Under the pieces are notes generated by a model. That model was not told the DNA's origin, ran no database searches, and saw only the letters and a list, made by a program, of their open reading frames with translations. A stretch of DNA of 63,555 nucleotides, the filler included, from Folioceros fuciformis (Eukaryota), in assembly GCA_049999805.1 (NCBI GenBank). It is 5 parts of 4 records of this genome, joined end to end, with 100 filler letters (N's around TTAATTAATTAA, not from the genome) between each part and the next. Parts side by side here need not be neighbours in the genome. Positions count along the whole stretch, not along the records: positions 52,078 to 61,853 come from JBNGIO010005981.1; 4 more parts are not named here. One strand, written 5' to 3'. A program made the position numbers and the translations under genes. Positions 51,978 through 63,504 of the stretch are shown piece by piece. Each line of letters opens with the position of its first letter. Positions within the stretch are counted from its first letter, which is position 1.

Positions 51978-52077
51978 NNNNNNNNNNNNNNNNNNNNNNN
52001 NNNNNNNNNNNNNNNNNNNNNTTAATTAATTAANNNNNNNNNNNNNNNNNNNNNNNNNNNNNNNNNNNNNNNNNNNN
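51978..52077. other. Artificial contig-joining linker
   Basis: N44-TTAATTAATTAA-N44. Confidence 0.97.
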
Positions 52078-52150
52078 ATCAAATCTTTAATTAGGTACTT
52101 GTAACAACACAGTATCATGAATACTCTGTAGGTTTCTTGCGTGCTCACAC

Positions 52151-53120
52151 TCAATATCGCCTCCTGAGGGGACTTCGTGACCTGTGACCACCACCCTGCC
52201 TCGGAGACCTGCAACCACCTCTCCAGTTCAATCCAATCCCAAAAGGGACATGCAATAGCATTCACCCACACAGAAATAGACAGATACCCGTACCTCCTCC
52301 TAGCACTGCGACGATTCAAAGGTCCCTGACTGAACGCCCAATTAACAAAGATGTTTTGCCCAAGAAGAGCCTGCCCATTTAAACTATCAATTGCGGTCTG
52401 TGCTTCTTTCCTCGATTCATACTCTATGAGGGCATACCCCTGAAATCCCACAAACACACATCACATCAGAAACCCTGAAGGACATCTACCAAACCAACCG
52501 TACAAGACACGGACATCAGCTTTAAAACGATGCACTCACCTTCACAAACCCAGTCCTTCGATCTAGATTCAAATGCAGGTTCTTGATCTCCCCATACTCC
52601 GCGAACAGCTCATGCAGATCATCCTCCTGAGCCTCCTCATGAACTCCAGTCACCAGAATTATCCAGCCTTCCACAGCTGCATCCACAGTTCAAGCAAATC
52701 TTCAGCCCCGAAGCGCATCAGACAGTGCCCTACCAAGAAACCCTAACACAAGTCTCAGTCCTCTGCAACGGGATCAAACAACGTAAAGCCGCGTAGGTCT
52801 CAGAATCCTTGCCAAAGCTCCTAGGTCATACAAAGCAAGACACACATACACTTCATTGGCCCGGGACCCCCCCCGGGCTCCACGGAATCGAACTCCCTCG
52901 AGCCATATCGGAGAGAGGTGTCAATCTGTTCACGGAAACCACGGCCCTTGGTCCTTCGATTGGATCGCTCAGACGCTCCGGTTCCAAAGTCTCCTCCGCC
53001 TCCAGTAATGGTAGACCTCAGCTTAGGCGCCGGGTACGCTTCTTCCATAGGTTCGTCTTCCTCCATCATGTCCTCGTCCTCGGGCTCCAGATCCACCGCA
53101 TCCGTCATAGGGTTCGCCAT
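52151..53120 (-). CDS. Y14: RNA-binding protein Y14/RBM8A (exon junction complex), 4 exons
   Basis: [64 protein letters not shown]-rich tail [10 protein letters not shown]. Confidence 0.95.
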
Positions 53121-54168
53121 GACGTCGCTGCCGCTGGAGGAGGAGGGACCTCTACCGTGTAGAGTTTCGCGCTGGTGTAGTTTGAGTTTTGTCAGATAGG
53201 GTAACGAGTCATCTGGAACACTAGGTCTAAGGTGTGACTCTGTGCACTCCGAGGGTGCACGAAGGCCAGGTGATCACAACCCCTCAACACGACATTGCCT
53301 AGCGTATCGGCGGCGGAGGAACTTCGTTGCCCACCGCCAACAGAGCAATCGAACGATGTTTCACATGGACTAAGACAACTTCTTCAGGAATCCAAGCTTG
53401 AGTAGGGTACTGGTACGGCCAGGTTTCTTTAACGTTTCGGGAGTGGCAAGGAATCCCGGGCGTCTATTACAGGATATGAGTGCAGCCCAGAGTCTGGGAG
53501 GCAGTGGCATGTGAAGGGATTCCTCGACTATTCTAAAACGTGATATCTTGAAGCTCAATGGCAATCCACACAGGACCATGCCTAGACTCTGCTTTGCTAG
53601 ACCCTTCTCTTGGCCGTTGTAAACTGCAGCTCGATGTATGTATGGAATAGCCCATGGAGGAAGACATCCAACCATCTGCCGTCACTCACTTTGTCAACAG
53701 CCGTATTCGTATTCCATCTGTAGGATGTGCACTGCGTGTAGATGAGCACAAGCTTACGAACTGGTATTGAAAGTTGATTGGAGGCTTCTGTAGTGCGTTC
53801 CTGTAGCAGGAAGATCGTTGGTGATTCCTTCTCGGGTCCTGGAGTAGAGGTCCCGACGAGCATCACATATTGGTGATGTACACGCCCACCACAGATGTTG
53901 GCATTTCAAAACACTCGAACGCGATGTCAATAGCCGAATGCATTTTCATGGATTGGACCTCCGCTTGCGCACGTTGACTAGGTAATCCAATTACACCTGA
54001 CCACGCAAAGCGAGCGAGAACAGCTATGTCCCTGCGTATCCAACTCCTTGTGCAGCACCTCCTTGTGCAGTCTGGTGGCTGCTCCCTCTGTGAGAACAGC
54101 TAACTGGGCTGCCAGCTCAGTCATGCTCCTTTGGAAGGCTATGTTCTCCACTTCCCTAGCAGCTACCT

Positions 54169-54405
54169 CCCGGAACGAATGACCGGGCTAAACCCTCAGG
54201 TACAGAGGTCACGATGACTTGTGCGGCCTACGTCATCCCTTTTGAGAGAGATCCGTAGTAGAATAGATAATTGAGAGACAACTAGGCCCCCGGAACGAAT
54301 GACCGGGCTAAACCCTCAGCTACAGAGGTCACTATGCCTTGTGTGGTCTACGTCATACCTTGTGAGCTAGATCCTAGAATAGATAATTGAGAAGCAACTG
54401 GGCCC
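54169..54405. repeat. 120-bp tandem duplication
   Basis: cccggaacgaatgaccgggctaaaccctcag.tacagaggtcac at 54169 and 54289. Confidence 0.9.
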
Positions 54406-54425
54406 GACCAAAGGATGTCCAAATG

Positions 54426-57400
54426 GGCTAGCCGTAAAAATCAGGTGGCCAGGTCTGGGCCCCACTGACACTCTTCTTACACGAGTGTGCTTGCAAAGGT
54501 TGCCACATAACATGTGACCATATACATACACCATATACCTATACGCTTCACCGGCTATCGGTTGTGTTTACCACTAGGTTAAATTAAACCATAGTTACTA
54601 AAATCCTAATTTCAAATCGTGATTTGCTTACACCTCGGTGCACGAAATTGGCACCAAAGTTGCGCTCTTGGATGGACAGCACTGATTCTAGCTGACCTCG
54701 CTTACCACCAAATGATGCACCCTGTACTGCTTACTATCAAAGAGTGATACCTGTCATATATTTTGACTTGCCAACGGATTGTCTATTCTCGTTATAAGTA
54801 CCACGTCTTGGCTCATTTCGAGAATGTCATCTCACGTGGCAAAAGTTGTTGTACAAGCATTCTTCAGCTCCAAGACAAATAAAGGAGGCTAGAATCGCCC
54901 ACATTCCTTGGGAAAGAGTGCAAGATTTTGTGGCGGGAATGGATAGCCAGCATGAAGCACCGACAAATTTTGCTCGTCTTTGGACAAAAGGGCCCAGCCA
55001 ATTACCACAACCAAGTCAGCCCAAAGCAAATTCTCGTATCTCAATAGTCAGGTACATTGGTTTGAGATTGCTTCTTTCAATTCGTTTCCAAATGTCACAT
55101 GATGCCTTCACAACCTCACTTTCATAGTGGTAGAGTTTGCTCCACTACACTCTATTCTTATCAAATCACATACCAAACTATTTGCCTTAGTGAGCCGAAT
55201 CTAACCGTATGCTATGTGTCCAATGTTGAGCACATTTGAGCAGGATGCTGCAAGAAAAGGTTTTTCTCACATCCTAACTTTTGGGTGTTCATTTCTTTTC
55301 TCCAGTCTTCACTGATTGTTGCATGCTATATATCATTTTGTTTTCCTCAGCAACACAAACAGAATGATGTGTTTTGTGTGCGTTTTGGACCACAATTGAG
55401 CAGGATGCTGCAAGAAAAAGTTTTTCTCACATCCTGACTTTGGGTGTCCATTTCTTTCTCCAGTCTTCACTGATTGTTTCATGTTATATATCATTCTGTT
55501 TTCCTTAGCAACACAAACACAATGATGTGTTTTGTGTGCGTTTTAAAGCACATTTGAGCAGGATGCTGCAAGAAACGTTTTTCTTCACGTCCTTACTTTG
55601 GGTGTTCAGTTCTTTCTCCAATCTTTACTAATTGTTGCATGCTGTATACCATTCTGTTTCATTTAGCAAGGCAAACATAATGATGTGTTTTGTGTGCGTT
55701 TTGGAGCACATTTGATCAAGATGCTGCAATGCAAAGGTTTTTTCACATCCTCACTTTGGGTGTTCAGTTCTTTCTCCAGTCTTCACTAATTATTGCATGC
55801 TATATACCATTCTGTTTTCCTTAGAAAGGCAAACAGAATGATGTGTTTTTTGTGCGATTTGGAGTACATTTGTTTAGGATGCTGCAATGCAAAGGTTTTT
55901 TCACATCCTGACTTTGGGTGTTCATTTCTTTCTCCAGTCTTCACTAATTGTTGCACGCCATATACCATTCTGTTTCCCTTACCAAGGAAAACAGAATGAT
56001 GTATTTTTTGTGCGCTTTGGAGTACATTTGGTTAGGATGCTGCAATGCAAAGGTTTTTTCACATCCTGACTTTGGGTGTTCATTGCTTTCTCCAGTCTTC
56101 ACTAATTGTTGCATGCTATATACCATTTTGTTTGGCTCAGCAAGTCAATCAATTTGGTGTATAGTTTGTTTGGTTTTAATATGTTTTGACGAGGATGCTA
56201 ATAAAAAAGCATGCTTTATATTCTAGCTTCTAGTTGCTCTTACATAATCATGGACTCCACAAATTGGTTGCCTTCTCACTTCTCGTGGATTGTCCAGGTA
56301 TTGGTGTGCCTACGGGCCTGAAGATTATCGATTGACCACAGCAACTGGTGCTCAGGATTTGCCTACGCATTCTCCACAAACTAAGAGGCGGTCACGATTG
56401 AAAGCTGGAGAAAGCATCAAACATGGGTGTCAAGCTAGCTTCATTGTGAAAAGGTTGTTCTTGTGGCCATCTGTTGCTCAGATTTTGCTATTTGAGAGTA
56501 GACATATCGATGTCAAGGGTCAAGTGTGTCACGACCCTAGTTATGCAGGCATAGTAAGAGATATAAGAGCGTCACATTTGTCAACCGAGAAGAGAGCTTG
56601 GGTGAGGCATTGTCTATATTGCAATGTATCAGTTGATGAGATTTTGCGTTGTCATCAGCAGGCTGATATAGCTAAGTGTTGTCCGTCTACTTTATCAAAT
56701 CATGAAGTTCCCTATGTGAAGGTAAGAGATGACTTCCTTTCACGGGACGATGTCTATAATATAGCCAAGGAGGTGGACATGATACAATGGAGGTATCATG
56801 ACAATGATAACCTTAGTGTGGGAATGTGGATGAATTTACATGCAGGGTATGTGTTCCATACATCTAGTGAAGGAGAATCTTTTTGCCTCGGCTTACAAAC
56901 TTCTTTCATGTTGGAAACTTGTGTCTGACATGGGCACAATAGTTTGCTTGCAATGGACTCCACTTTTGGGGTAAACAGGTACAAGTATCAATTATTTACT
57001 GTCATGGTATTTGACCAACACTAGAATGGGATTCCTGTTGCCTGGGCTCTCACACAGGAGGCAACTACAAGAGCATTAGTTCCATGGCTTACGGCATTTT
57101 GCACAAGAGTTCTACAAGTAGCTCCAGATTGGTTGCCTAGTACCTTCTTGGTTGATGATTGTGCTGCTAAAATAGGTGCTTTACGAGAAGTTTGGTCGCG
57201 TGATATGCCAGTCTATTTATGTTTGTGGCACGTTTGCCGTGCTTGGCTACGCTGCTCAAGAAGGTGAAGAAAGTGCAGGATACGCAAGCTATGTGGGCTG
57301 AGTTAGGGCAAATTATGTATGTTCAAGGGGGCCAATTGTGGATTACATTCAGCACACTTGGGAAGGCCAGCTAGGTGAGTGTGTTTTGTAAGCTTTCAGC

Positions 57401-59533
57401 AAAAAGTGTACAACATGGTGATTGTGAACAACATCAAATGTGCTCATTTCAAATGATTTGCCTTGTTTCCATATATGTTCATGAAGGCAGCTCGCACCAT
57501 GCTTCATGCTAGACAGGATTGTGCCTCCTCTATTGAAGCTTGGCATAGATTCTTGAAGGAGAGGTTAGCTAACTCAAAAGTTGGCATTCATGCTTGTTAA
57601 GTTGATTGGTTGTTGCATCAATTGTGTTTCGTAGTTGCTCCTCATTTCTGGTACCAAAATCATTGTAAGGAGGGGGGTTACATTGTGAATACTAAGCAAG
57701 AACAGTTGCACAAACATGCAGAAGCTAGTGCAAATGATATTCTTGATGATATGGTGACCCTTTCTATGGTGCCTTACGGTGTGCCTAAGTGTATGTCTAG
57801 AGCAAATCCTTGGAAGCCAGGAGGCTCCTTCGCCCAAGCGCCGGAGTACCCGCCCTGCTACCATGGCAATGAACAGATCCCACTGCGGAGCGCCCCATCC
57901 CCTATCAATCCGAAGCCAAAGGATTTGCCGGTACTAGCTACGGGCTGCTAGGTCGCTCCTAGGACCCGAGAGGAAGCAGACCGAATGGAGTTGGTCCAGT
58001 TGGTAGCTCAATTAGATTACAATGAGAAGCATGGCATAAAGCCGTTTGGGGTGAAGTGACTTCTATTGCCACATGGTGGGACGAAGGGGAGGGGACTTCG
58101 TTCACCCGGTCTACCACCAGCCACGGTAATACCCCACCGGCGTCGAGACGTCGTGCTAATCGGAATCACTAATCCGAAAACCATGCAAAGGGTCATTTGG
58201 ATGGCTAGCCGTAAAAATCAGGTGGGCAGGTCTGGGCCCCACCGATCCACTCGTGCAGCCGTGCCATGCTTCATGTATGACATCCCATGGCTTGTGCATA
58301 AGGATACGGTTAGCAGATCTACGTATGGTTTTGCAGGGCACCGGCAACCGGTGAAATAAAGCGGCACTTGCAAGCAGTGGGTTATCGCCGCGAAAAATGG
58401 GCTGGCAATGCAGATCATGAGCGAACTACTGTCCTTGTTCAACAGCACACACTATTACACTACACACAATATACGTATACGAATACGCGTATATCTTCAA
58501 TAAAACATTGACTTGCACCTGGCTGGAACCAAGTCCCGCTTCTTCTTCTTCCACGAACAGAACCAAGTCTCGCCTCTCATCTTCCACGGGCAGAGACAAG
58601 CAAGTGTGTGTATGCGTTCGTGAGCATACAAGGTTTGCCATGGATTTGCCATTGCACTCCGGAGCCCCATGGGTTTGAAATTGCAAGAGGTTTTTCTCAC
58701 ATGGATTTATAGGTTGTAGGAGCTTGAGCTCCATGGATATGAAGGCTGCAAGTAAAAAGGTCATGGAGGCAACAAAGCACTATAGTGAATGGAAACTAAA
58801 TTCACAAAGCAACAAAAACATGGAAGCCAAGGTACTCGTTCAGAGAGAAAAACCAGGGCGTGCAACCCTGCCGTTGTCCTGGAAAACAAGGCATGTAATT
58901 ATCTATCGTTGGCCTCTATGCATTCTCTTTGCCACCTCCTACATTCCAAGTGATTTTCTTCCTTTTCCCCTTGGGAGGGGAAAAGGAAGGTCTCAACCTA
59001 GTTGCAATGCTTGGTCCTTCAATTGGTGTAAAAGGTTGTAATAACCTGCATTCTGGCTGTCCGCCAGTCTCTTGCATTTGGGCTATGAGCTGCTTCACAG
59101 CCAACAAAGTATTCTGCACAAGGACATCAACCTCAAACACAATACCATCGTGCATGTACACACAATCCCAAATGTCTTTGCACCCTTGTTCCACACTCAC
59201 TAGCTTCTTTTCCTTCAATTCTTGATATCTAGGCTTATGACATTCTATTGGAGGTAGTACACTTGGGGTAGAATACTAATCCAATGAAGTTGGGAAGGTA
59301 GTCTCATCATCTTGTGTACAATGAAGCCAATTTAACCATAATGTTGTGTCCACTTCCTCCCCTTCCTTTTCGTTACTAGCTGCAAACTTGCGACTAAGGG
59401 CTGACGTATGAGTAAACACCCCAAGCATCTGCTGAACTTTCACAACGTGCTTACATAAAAAACCTTGTTGTCCTTGTGGACAGCTGCAAGTTGCCCACAT
59501 GGACATTGGATCGGTGACCACATAAGCGAATTC
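54426..59533 (+). mobile_element. Mutator-like (MULE) DNA transposon, ~4.7 kb when restored; 3' part (58203-59533) inverted
   Basis: 40-bp terminal repeats 54426-54465 and 58203-58242 (39/40). TSD gtccaaatg (54417-54425) vs revcomp of 58194-58202 = atccaaatg. Transposase motifs IPWERVQDF, YWCAYGPEDY, GCQASFIVKRL, LAMDSTFGVNRYKYQLFTVMVFD, VDD, YLCLWHV; SWIM CSC...CKH on minus strand at ~59440-59500. In-frame stops at 56926 and 57022. Confidence 0.9.
55225..56135. repeat. 158-bp tandem array (~5.8 copies) inside the MULE transposase intron
   Basis: Unit anchors at 55231, 55391, 55549, 55707, 55865, 56023, between donor gtacat (55052) and acceptor tccag (56297). Confidence 0.93.
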
Positions 59534-59539
59534 CTTCCA

Positions 59540-60620
59540 TTTCCTCGCCAGAGGAGGGCTGGCAAGGGAGCTGGGGACATAAGGTGGTGCCATTGAACGG
59601 GACTCCGGCTCAGTCGGCCGGCTAGCCTCCGAGCTGTCAGATATGGGGAGGGGTATTTGGGCAGTCAGCAGTGCCTTAGGCTAGGTTGCGGGGATAGCAG
59701 CCTTCTTCTTAGGAATTGTGGCCATAATAGTGACGGGAGGGTGTGCCGAAATAGGAGTAAACCTAGCGATGATTGCTAGTTCCATGTCTATCAAGACCCT
59801 ATGGTGCCCCCAAATATGGAATAGGAAGGGCAATAATCCTGAGGTGGATAGCTTGTCTTGCCTAAGCTTTCTAACATTAGATTGGATTCGATGTGCCACC
59901 ACCTTGCCCGTGTCCACCGAGGATCCTTGGGCCAACCCATAGAGGAGCATCAATACTTTGTCAGCCACATGGTTTGTCTTCATAACTAGTAGCAGCCAAT
60001 TCATGATGAGGCGGACCACTCCTCAAATCCTCAAGTCTTCAATGTCATGGATTAATCACCCAATGGCAGTTTTGAAGGTTCCGTCAATCAAGAGCGCCTT
60101 GGCGGCCTCCTTTACCAAGGCTTTGTTCCGCTGGGAATTCAAATACAAGCCTCCCCGCTCCAATTCCACCTACTGATACACTCCCTCATCATTTGGATAG
60201 TCCAAAGGAGGGGGTTGTCCCGTATCTTAAAGGACTCCTACTTCCCTCGAGCGCAACACTAGAGTATCCAGGCAAATTCTTGAATTGCCGATGTGGATTG
60301 GATGGCCCAAGGGAACTGAAAGATGCCCAACTCCCACTGCTCCATTAGGTTGCCGGCGGCTGCTATCCAAGGGGTGAAGTTTGGGTACACCCGTGTTTGT
60401 ATCTGGTCTTCGCTGATCTGCCAGACACTGCCAGCCTCAAGGAACTACCTAGGTGCCATTCGGAAAGGTGGCGGTGTAGAGGGAGGGACAGCAAAGATGA
60501 TGCAAAGCACTAAACCTTGCACCGTGCGTCATAGATGCATGAGAGGAGTAAGTGCATGCAAAGATGGCGAGAAGGCAGAGGAGGAGGACAACCTCAAAAT
60601 GGCATTGCGTCGGGAAAGGC
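59540..60620 (-). pseudogene. Decayed ORF, probably an accessory ORF of a host retroelement into which the MULE inserted
   Basis: Fragments such as VDTGKVVAHRIQ...LLPFLFHIW plus a Pro-rich tract; multiple stops. Continues into 57817-58193 once the inversion is undone. Identity inferred. Confidence 0.35.
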
Positions 60621-61188
60621 AAAGGGAGGTAGGAGATGCCAAGAGCATAATCACTAGCGTACGCCAACATAAGATCGTACGTTGCAACTGTTGGCACAAC
60701 TGCAATTGTCCGGAGGTGATTACAATCGCTCAACTTTATGATGACAAGTACACCAAACCTGGAGCCAATCGTGACCTGTGTCAGTCAGTCTGCCATGTGG
60801 CTCTTGTAGGTACGCCATGGGGCAACTCCGAAAATTTGTGCTTACTAAAAAGAAACATTAATACCTGAAAAAGTAAACAACAAATAGCCACCGGACCCAA
60901 CTCAGATGGATTATTAGAGTGCTCCTTCGATATATTATTTTTGGTCTTACAAGATGCAAAATCCTTTGATTAGAATGCCTCCCTTGTTCACAACTCAACT
61001 TGTTTGGATAAGATGCTGACCAAAACACATTAAATGGAAGTCGATGAAGAGGCTTCAATCTACCTAACAGAAACTAACCCCTACAAATATTGTAAACAAG
61101 CCAAGGGAAGTATGAAATATTCATTTAATCCTCCAAGTATTGTCAAATTTTGTTCAAAGCTTCACAAGCACTAGCCATGTATGCTTTG

Positions 61189-61312
61189 TTGCCTTTGCCA
61201 ACCTTGGCCATGCACCGTTATGCCAACGTTGCCTTTGCCAACATTGGCCATGCACCGTTATGCCAACATTGCCTTTGCCAACATTGGCCATGCACCTTAC
61301 GTCAACATTGGC
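61189..61312. repeat. 40-bp minisatellite, ~3 copies
   Basis: ttgcctttgccaac[c/a]ttggccatgcacc at 61189, 61229, 61269. Confidence 0.9.
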
Positions 61313-61853
61313 TCTGCACCATAGTGGACATAAGACCAAAGTACAATAATGTACATTGGTCTAGCATTATGATAAGTGTGTAAGCTATCAGCTTTGTGCC
61401 TGCTACCATTCAATTCGCTTTCGCCCCTTGGCCTAAGAGATCACAAGAGGCTAGGGGCTTGTTTGTACGTGATTGTGATTGTGGCCCAAGGGGCATAGGC
61501 CTTATAGCCTCAATGCCCTCCAATTGCAATCACAAGACACCATGAGAGGCCTATTTATACATGGTTTTGATTGTGGATTGAGAGGCTTAGGCATCGCCTT
61601 CCTCATCTTCACATTTGCCTTGGACTTGTTAGGAAATGATCTCACTTGATGGATTGACCCTTCAATCGGAGAACCCAAGGCGTTGCGCCATCTCAACTCG
61701 TCCTACAACAAGTTCTCAAGCCTAAGCCCAGCATTATTTGTAGGGCTGGGCCAGGCTGACTTAGAGGTTTGTCACCTATCCAATAACTTGCCAACACAAT
61801 CTCCAAATCTTAATGCTTTGGACCCGTCCAAGAAGATGGTAAAAGGTTCTATA

Positions 61854-61953
61854 NNNNNNNNNNNNNNNNNNNNNNNNNNNNNNNNNNNNNNNNNNNNTTA
61901 ATTAATTAANNNNNNNNNNNNNNNNNNNNNNNNNNNNNNNNNNNNNNNNNNNN
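61854..61953. other. Artificial contig-joining linker
   Basis: N44-TTAATTAATTAA-N44. Confidence 0.97.
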
Positions 61954-63419
61954 CCATAACCTCCACAGTTTTGGCACGGAAGTGGGCGCATGGCACCTTG
62001 CCCCAATCCTTTGTGAGGACAAGCACTCGCATAATGTCCCGGTTCTCCACAGTTGTAACAGATCACCTCCTGTCGATCCGGATAACCAGGGGAACGCATG
62101 GGTTGTGGCATCACCACTCCTTGACTTGGTCCGGGAAGAAAATTCCGGTTCAACACATTGGGACGGATTGGTACTGCGACTCCTCTTCCTCTCCCATAGG
62201 TCGGTTGAACTTGGTAAACTTCTTCCTCTTCCTCGTCCGCCATGGCATAGTAAACGTCTTCCTCTGGGTATACAAAGTGAACCTGCTTCTGAGGTGGTCT
62301 CTGGCACTCACTCGGATAGTGCCCTTGCTCTCCACATCTTCCGCACCAAACATTAGCTCGGGCTGTCGGAACGATTCGTCGTGGCTTCCGGTTTTCGGCG
62401 AGATTTACCTTGATCGCCTCCAGAGACTCTTGGATACTCTTCATCATCTTCCTGGAATCCGTATTCTCTGTCTTCACCTTCACGACAGTTTTCCCTTTCA
62501 CTCCCTTCATCTTAGAGGAACGTCGGATTGGGGAAAGACTCCGGTCTTCCTCCGAGCTGGATGAACTTGATTCGGAATCTTCCGAACCAGACTCTTCTGA
62601 GCTGTCATCCGAATCCGTGTCCTTCCTTCGATGCTTCGACTTCCGGTCGACTCTCTTTCCATTCGACCTTTCTCTTTCCTTGCTTCTTTTCATCGACTTC
62701 CGGAGTGACTGCGCTGAGTTCTCGTAATTGGCTGCAGCGTCCATGGCTTCCCTCAGCGTCTTCGGTCGTGTTTGGCGGATCAGGAACCCCATGGACTCGG
62801 GTAATCCGGCAACGTACCATTCCACCTGGAGACTAGGAGCGATCTCAGTCGTCAGCTTCTGGATGAGTGCTTTCACCCTCTGCCCATACCTTCGAACGGA
62901 TTCGGATGGCTTCATCGTGAGCGCACTCAGTCGTCCTAAAGCTCTGGACTCTCCTCCTACCTCCCGGAAAGCCTGCAAGAAGCTATTCCGTAATTCTTCC
63001 CAATTATTCCGGGTCGAGTCCGGAATATCTTGGTACCACCTCAACGCCTCTCCTTTCAGAAGCCCTTGGAAGATCCTTTGGTGAGCCGACTCGCTTTCTT
63101 GATTAGCGAGTGCGGTTGATTCAAACTCACACAGCCAGTCGTCTGCATCCTGGCTTCCGTCTCCCTTGAAGCGGTTGTACTTCAACCGGGTCATGGCGCT
63201 CTCCTGTTCTTCGACCGGGTTCCTCTGAACAAGATCCGGTTCTGGAACAGTAGTCCTAGCAGGACGTCCAGTTCCCCGATTACTATCTTCTCCGGTAACA
63301 AGCACCTGAAGAACTTCCGTTCCACGAATGTTTGTTTCACCGGAGTCCGGTCCAGCCGACTCTCTTCGACTGACCCTCAATCGTTCTGACTTCCGGTTAG
63401 ACCGGGTTCCTTCTCGCAT
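61954..63419 (-). mobile_element. Ty3/gypsy (Athila/Tat-like) LTR retrotransposon gag ORF, 3' truncated by contig end
   Basis: Retrotrans-gag core (FKGDGSQDADDWL, LKGEALRWY, WEELRNSFL, ESVRRY). Zinc knuckles CGRCGEQGHYPSEC and CYNCGEPGHYASAC, plus the start of a third (CQNC). No stops over ~490 codons. Confidence 0.9.
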
Positions 63420-63504
63420 GAGTCAGAGCTCCCGTCAATTTGCCGGAACGTCTGACAGTGTTCTATTTACTGGTTTACTTACAGTAAGCCTAGAAGCTTT
63501 GGAA

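Follow-up and report, generated by a model that had tools for sequence, protein, structure and literature searches.

A decayed Mutator-like transposon copy in Folioceros fuciformis, very probably rearranged by a 1,717-bp inversion after insertion

We examined a 63.5-kb stretch of the Folioceros fuciformis genome (assembly GCA_049999805.1; 63,555 nucleotides with runs of N included), referred to here as the window; coordinates count along the whole of it, and results apply to it unless another scope is given. Between 54417 and 59539, the window carries the parts of a Mutator-like (MULE) DNA transposon divided between the two strands. On the + strand lie a first coding block of a transposase (54804–55055) and the transposase main body (56293–57816), and on the − strand lies a 3′ part with a SWIM zinc finger and the transposase C-terminal region (58246–59533). 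A 43-nt terminal repeat occurs at 54426–54468 and again at 58203–58245, both times on the + strand. In our reading, held with high confidence, these are the pieces of a single MULE copy that underwent a balanced inversion of 1,717 bp (57817–59533) after it had inserted. A rearranged, dead copy of this kind is an ordinary event, and its reconstruction is neat.

The + frame reads to ...ANPWK, ending in TGGAAG at 57811–57816, where homology stops, and the − frame reads WK-EFAYVVTDP... starting at CTTCCA (59534–59539). With two stops read as X, the MULE domain (PF10551; + strand 56947–57237, residues 234–330 of the frame at 56248–57267) reaches 46.5 bits (cut-off 27.6, E 5.1e-12), and its stop-split fragments score 19.4 and 20.2 bits. 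The SWIM finger (PF04434; − strand 59435–59494), in which the CxC...CxH pattern is kept, scores 25.5 bits against a cut-off of 19.6, and it follows the MULE domain within one protein only when the inversion is reversed. A preliminary description of the locus had proposed this division of the transposase, with the + strand reading as far as WK and the SWIM finger and C-terminus on the − strand, and had predicted that reverse-complementing 57817–59533 would restore one frame. The frames and the SWIM finger lie where it had placed them, and after inversion of the segment in silico and re-translation the two frames fuse without a stop.

Relatives were collected by a HMMER search of 1.84 billion representative proteins with a 226-aa N-terminal piece as the query, which gave 164 at E ≤ 0.001; a word-indexed protein search with the same piece among longer proteins gave nothing at that threshold. 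The best 150 of the 164 include 21 full-length homologues of at least 580 aa, and those named come from liverwort, ferns, conifers and angiosperms. By tblastn, all 21 match the + strand at 56278–57834, and 11 also match the − strand at 59644–59372 (E ≤ 1e-3), every time with later residues. Individual homologues bring the two matches close together: in P0005, residues 523 and 526 fall at 57810 and 59527, and in P0146, residues 573 and 576 fall at 57813 and 59524. A profile of 827 positions, built from 16 of the 21 homologues (five left out), was run on all six-frame pieces of the window. Positions 18–94 fall in the first coding block at 54804–55055 on the + strand (hmmsearch i-E 1.9e-07; tblastn with P0006 and P0031 matches at 54783–55001), and positions 92–297, 299–329, 331–404, 405–431, 467–505 and 509–565 follow on the same strand at 56293–57771. 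Positions 579–620 are on the − strand, where the match has its first base exactly at 59533 and extends to 59408. No other piece of the window matched the profile at E < 1.

The main body continues for 15 residues beyond profile position 565, to 57816. On this alignment essentially nothing is lost at the break, since these 15 window residues span the 13 profile positions between 565 and 579. The restored 158-aa peptide over the junction was aligned to 12 homologues (P0006 and the 11 that have a − strand match); in every one of the 12 the alignment runs unbroken through the join, with a score close to the sum of its halves (68.9 bits for P0005, compared with 41.6 and 37.0 bits). A domain scan of six homologues detected both domains in three (P0005, P0004 and P0031), with MULE before SWIM in one chain. 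Together, the profile map, the tblastn matches and the junction peptide show the halves to be consecutive, colinear parts of one transposase, broken between 57816 and 57817.

The ends of the element lead to the same rearrangement. The 43-nt repeat, which begins GGCTAGCCGTAAAAATCAGGTGG, is 95% alike in its two copies (92% identity over 50 nt by blastn), and a search allowing up to three mismatches found it at these 2 places in the window and at none in 100 shuffles. Both copies are on the + strand, so the repeats are now direct; flipping 57817–59533 makes them terminal inverted repeats. Directly abutting the outer side of the left repeat is gtccaaatg (54417–54425), and abutting that of the right repeat is catttggat (58194–58202), placed on the − strand, whose reverse complement is atccaaatg; the two agree in 8 of 9 bases and can be read equally well as a perfect 8-bp duplication. 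MULE target-site duplications measure 8–11 bp, usually 9. By our own arithmetic with equal base frequencies, an 8/9 match at fixed positions would arise by chance with a probability of about 1e-4. Only in the uninverted order do the two ends, and the two target-site copies, match up as pairs. The direct repeat (given as 40 bp), its conversion into terminal inverted repeats and the 9-bp duplication had all been put forward in the preliminary description, and all were recovered at both ends. Further out, the hexamer CAAAGG stands 2 nt outside each target-site copy (54409–54414 and 58186–58191) and forms an inverted pair around the insertion in the restored order, a symmetry expected by chance once in 4096 at a fixed offset (own arithmetic). 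The implied empty site is CAAAGG-AT-(g/a)TCCAAATG-AC-CCTTTG, and its symmetry may be due to chance or may stem from a transposase dimer that recognises its target symmetrically.

These matches bear on a different origin for the two halves, namely two truncated copies from one family placed tail to tail, the first on the + strand ending at 57816 and the second on the − strand ending at 59533, with unrelated DNA between them. The family is multi-copy in other plants, including a conifer cluster at 90% identity with 18 members on several chromosomes. Two independent truncations, however, would have to coincide to the base within the protein, the same 6-mer would have to be common to both, and the outer flanks would need both the 8/9 match and a symmetric CAAAGG beside each. 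Moreover, terminal-repeat and profile searches found no further copies or other fragments of the family in the window. We therefore consider two separate copies extremely improbable, and a single copy with an inversion remains our reading.

One breakpoint of that inversion interrupts the transposase gene (57816/57817), and the other falls in the flank (59533/59534). With the protein as a ruler, the inversion junctions can be placed to the exact base. Neither breakpoint is at an element end, one being 1,331 bp inside the element and the other 386 bp outside it, and this argues against an inversion made by the transposase. Inversions driven by transposons are well known, and the element's own transposase might have acted on reversed or alternative ends as in Ac/Ds; but such an event is expected to place a breakpoint at an element end and to leave a new target-site duplication, whereas the repeat at these junctions is 6 bp long and inverted. 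We give aberrant transposition very little credence.

An artefact, in which the organism is colinear and the assembler flipped a 1.7-kb piece, is somewhat less remote, though still improbable. In its favour, N runs do occur in other parts of the scaffolded window. The stretch 52078–61853 contains no N, however, so the inverted piece adjoins no scaffold gap, and both reciprocal junctions are present, on the transposon side without loss of sequence. We also reason that 6 bp of inverted homology is far below any k-mer or read overlap, and that a chimeric read would give one junction and not two balanced ones. We infer that the inverted arrangement is real in the organism and not a product of assembly alone.

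Inverted homology at the junctions is confined to the 6-mer, TGGAAG at 57811–57816 beside the first breakpoint and its inverted copy CTTCCA at 59534–59539 beside the second (both as read on the + strand), with no extension past 6 bp. The preliminary description had taken it for a microhomology that guided the inversion. The same 6-mer is indeed inverted at both junctions, but it may instead be a duplication made by the break, and removal of its two residues (WK) fits the protein family better. Under this alternative the inversion is the same: the flank would have broken in a staggered way, leaving overhangs of 6 nt whose fill-in copied CTTCCA to both junctions, and the transposon would have carried no TGGAAG at the break point beforehand. 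The window copy has two residues in excess between profile positions 565 and 579 (15 compared with 13), and among 60 sliding two-residue deletions the removal of WK gains most (+7.8 bits, from 78.6 to 86.4). After this deletion the pairwise score rises in 18 of 21 homologues, stays the same in three and falls in none, and for 10 of the 21 the highest-scoring deletion is WK or the overlapping PW. On the other side, another deletion is equal or better in the remaining 11 homologues, and the loop is variable in length, with P0125 aligning without a gap and P0004 and P0031 exceeding the window copy. Identity here is only about 30%, and deleting a tryptophan helps almost anywhere because tryptophan scores poorly against most columns. 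Fill-in is a real possibility, though we judge it less likely than not.

The sequence of events that we propose would begin with insertion of the MULE copy at this site, making the 9-bp target-site duplication. The balanced inversion of 57817–59533 would later have flipped the last 1,331 bp of the element together with 386 bp of adjoining flank; the former would carry the SWIM finger, the transposase C-terminus and the right terminal repeat, and the latter would include the right target-site copy. Two-break repair or a replication template switch, guided by the 6-bp inverted match, could have produced the junctions, as could fill-in of a staggered break. In the restored order the element measures 4,722 bp (3,391 + 1,331 bp).

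Several observations weigh against this reconstruction. One of the nine target-site bases differs between the copies, and the nearest proteins among the 1.84 billion representatives are just 38–43% identical. Exact-match scans of metagenome contigs, one with the terminal repeat and one with a 20-mer beside the breakpoint, gave 0 and 0 matches. The left flank shows no significant similarity to the two flank pieces that the inversion model would rejoin: 50/300 and 143/300 shuffles reach the score, and for each piece in both orientations the observed scores are reached in 50, 136, 143 and 192 of 300 shuffles. Two further candidates at the site failed. Continuation of the left flank's 120-bp tandem unit across the site into the restored right flank was not supported (best local score 22, compared with a shuffle maximum of 25), and we rejected a fragile-site hairpin at the restored flank junction (−16.5 kcal/mol compared with −17.5 ± 2.5 kcal/mol in shuffles, z 0.41).

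The former right flank, now inverted inside the element, is placed by the inversion model at 57817–58193 on the − strand; it has a GC content of 0.557 and no protein-family match. GC content is 0.63 just past the first breakpoint (57800–57899) and 0.62 beyond the second (59600–59699), compared with 0.38–0.46 in the element interior. It had been suggested that undoing the inversion rejoins two similar pieces of GC- and proline-rich flank, and on GC composition the two pieces could once have been contiguous; evidence of their continuity goes no further than composition. When Pfam was run on twelve frames, no family was found in nine flank frames, three of which overlap transposon ends, and matches came only from the neighbouring RRM gene and retrotransposon gag described below. 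The left flank contains two copies of the 120-bp tandem unit (54169–54405); they are about 87–90% alike and stop some 12 bp short of the target site. An imperfect CCTCCTGG / CCAGAGGAGG pairing is visible by eye where the restored flank pieces meet.

The transposase gene is dead even apart from the inversion. It has four in-frame stops, at 56929–56931, 57022–57024 and 57598–57600 on the + half and at 59273–59275 on the − strand after the SWIM region, as well as a frameshift near 57250 (about 57249–57252) and an unmatched stretch at 57330–57474 that may be partly intron. Among the 16 profile homologues, 66 columns are conserved in at least 14; aligned pieces of the window copy cover 52 of these and keep 44, including D374, E487, H490 and the SWIM residues C594, C596, C605 and H607, and two conserved N-terminal cysteine/histidine columns (134 and 135) are lost. 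No FAR1 DNA-binding domain was detected by Pfam in the window copy or in the six scanned homologues. The stops, the frameshift, the unmatched stretch and the loss of columns 134 and 135 mean that an intact transposase gene is lacking, which speaks to autonomy and not to MULE membership. The interval 55170–56230, which separates the first coding block from the main body and is probably intronic, holds about six tandem units of 158 bp (repeat spacing 158 nt, 67–88% identity); each unit contains a short internal inverted repeat.

Two earlier statements about the element need qualification in this light. It had been called a complete transposon, and its structure is whole, but its gene has decayed through the in-frame stops, the frameshift and the unmatched stretch. 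It had also been said that the inversion immobilised it. Direct orientation of its ends does prevent excision of the element as a unit, but the stops and the frameshift inactivate the gene as well.

Plant MULEs such as MuDR and Jittery have the same order of a DDE-type MULE domain followed by a SWIM zinc finger, the same terminal inverted repeats (once these are restored here) and the same 9-bp target-site duplication. The window copy differs from them in being dead and rearranged and in the 38–43% identity of its nearest proteins, and its repeats of 43–50 nt are shorter than the 100–200 nt of classical Mu elements. The transposase-derived genes FHY3/FAR1/FRS and MUSTANG have the same MULE-SWIM order as the window protein; the window copy is set apart from these by its terminal repeats and target-site duplication, on the strength of which we regard it as a transposon and not a host gene. 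Some angiosperm homologues are annotated as ‘SWIM zinc finger family protein’ or ‘uncharacterized protein LOC...’, and angiosperm relatives are seen as one or a few such genes; they are possibly domesticated. One relative (P0036 and P0175–P0188) forms the 90%-identity cluster of 18 proteins over several conifer chromosomes mentioned above, which suggests that the MULE/SWIM lineage was recently mobile there.

As a rearrangement, the locus resembles other small inversions with short inverted matches at their breakpoints, being balanced and having one 6-mer inverted at both junctions. Microhomology-mediated end joining, replication template switching and staggered-break inverted duplications are candidate mechanisms for inversions of this kind. 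Ac/Ds alternative transposition likewise yields an inversion involving a DNA transposon; by contrast, the breakpoints here are off the element ends and there is no new target-site duplication of transposon size. Staggered-break inverted duplications at inversion breakpoints are known from Drosophila, mainly from large inversions in flies. If the fill-in account is true, the transposon would be the internal ruler for a base-perfect staggered-break micro-inversion in a plant. A literature search at the level of abstracts found no case combining a MULE, an inversion and microhomology.

Nothing here alters existing knowledge of transposons or inversions. The locus illustrates how a small later inversion can conceal a structurally whole DNA transposon from finders that pair inverted ends; annotation would treat the two halves as separate, unrelated fragments, one per strand. 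For one copy of the MULE/SWIM lineage, whose public relatives are mostly unnamed ‘SWIM-type domain’ proteins, it also establishes the ends, marked by a 43-nt repeat that starts GGCTAGCC, and the 9-bp target site, and it is a tidy single example for the study of repair scars.

Two other genes flank the element in the window. On the − strand at 61954–63422, a long open frame codes for the gag of a Ty3-type retrotransposon, zinc knuckle included (PF03732, PF00098). The frame is cut off by a pair of 44-N runs, and no pol was seen following it on that strand. The N runs of the window consist of 100-N gaps and five pairs of 44-N runs with 12 bases within each pair (for example, 51978–52077 and 61854–61953); the regularity of these pairs is odd and suggests masking more than gaps in a scaffold. 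On the other side, 1.1 kb from the element, is a host gene with an RRM domain on the − strand at 52026–53273 (PF00076 in the frame at 52078–52460). It has an acidic N-terminal exon and presumably resembles the exon-junction-complex protein Y14/RBM8A.

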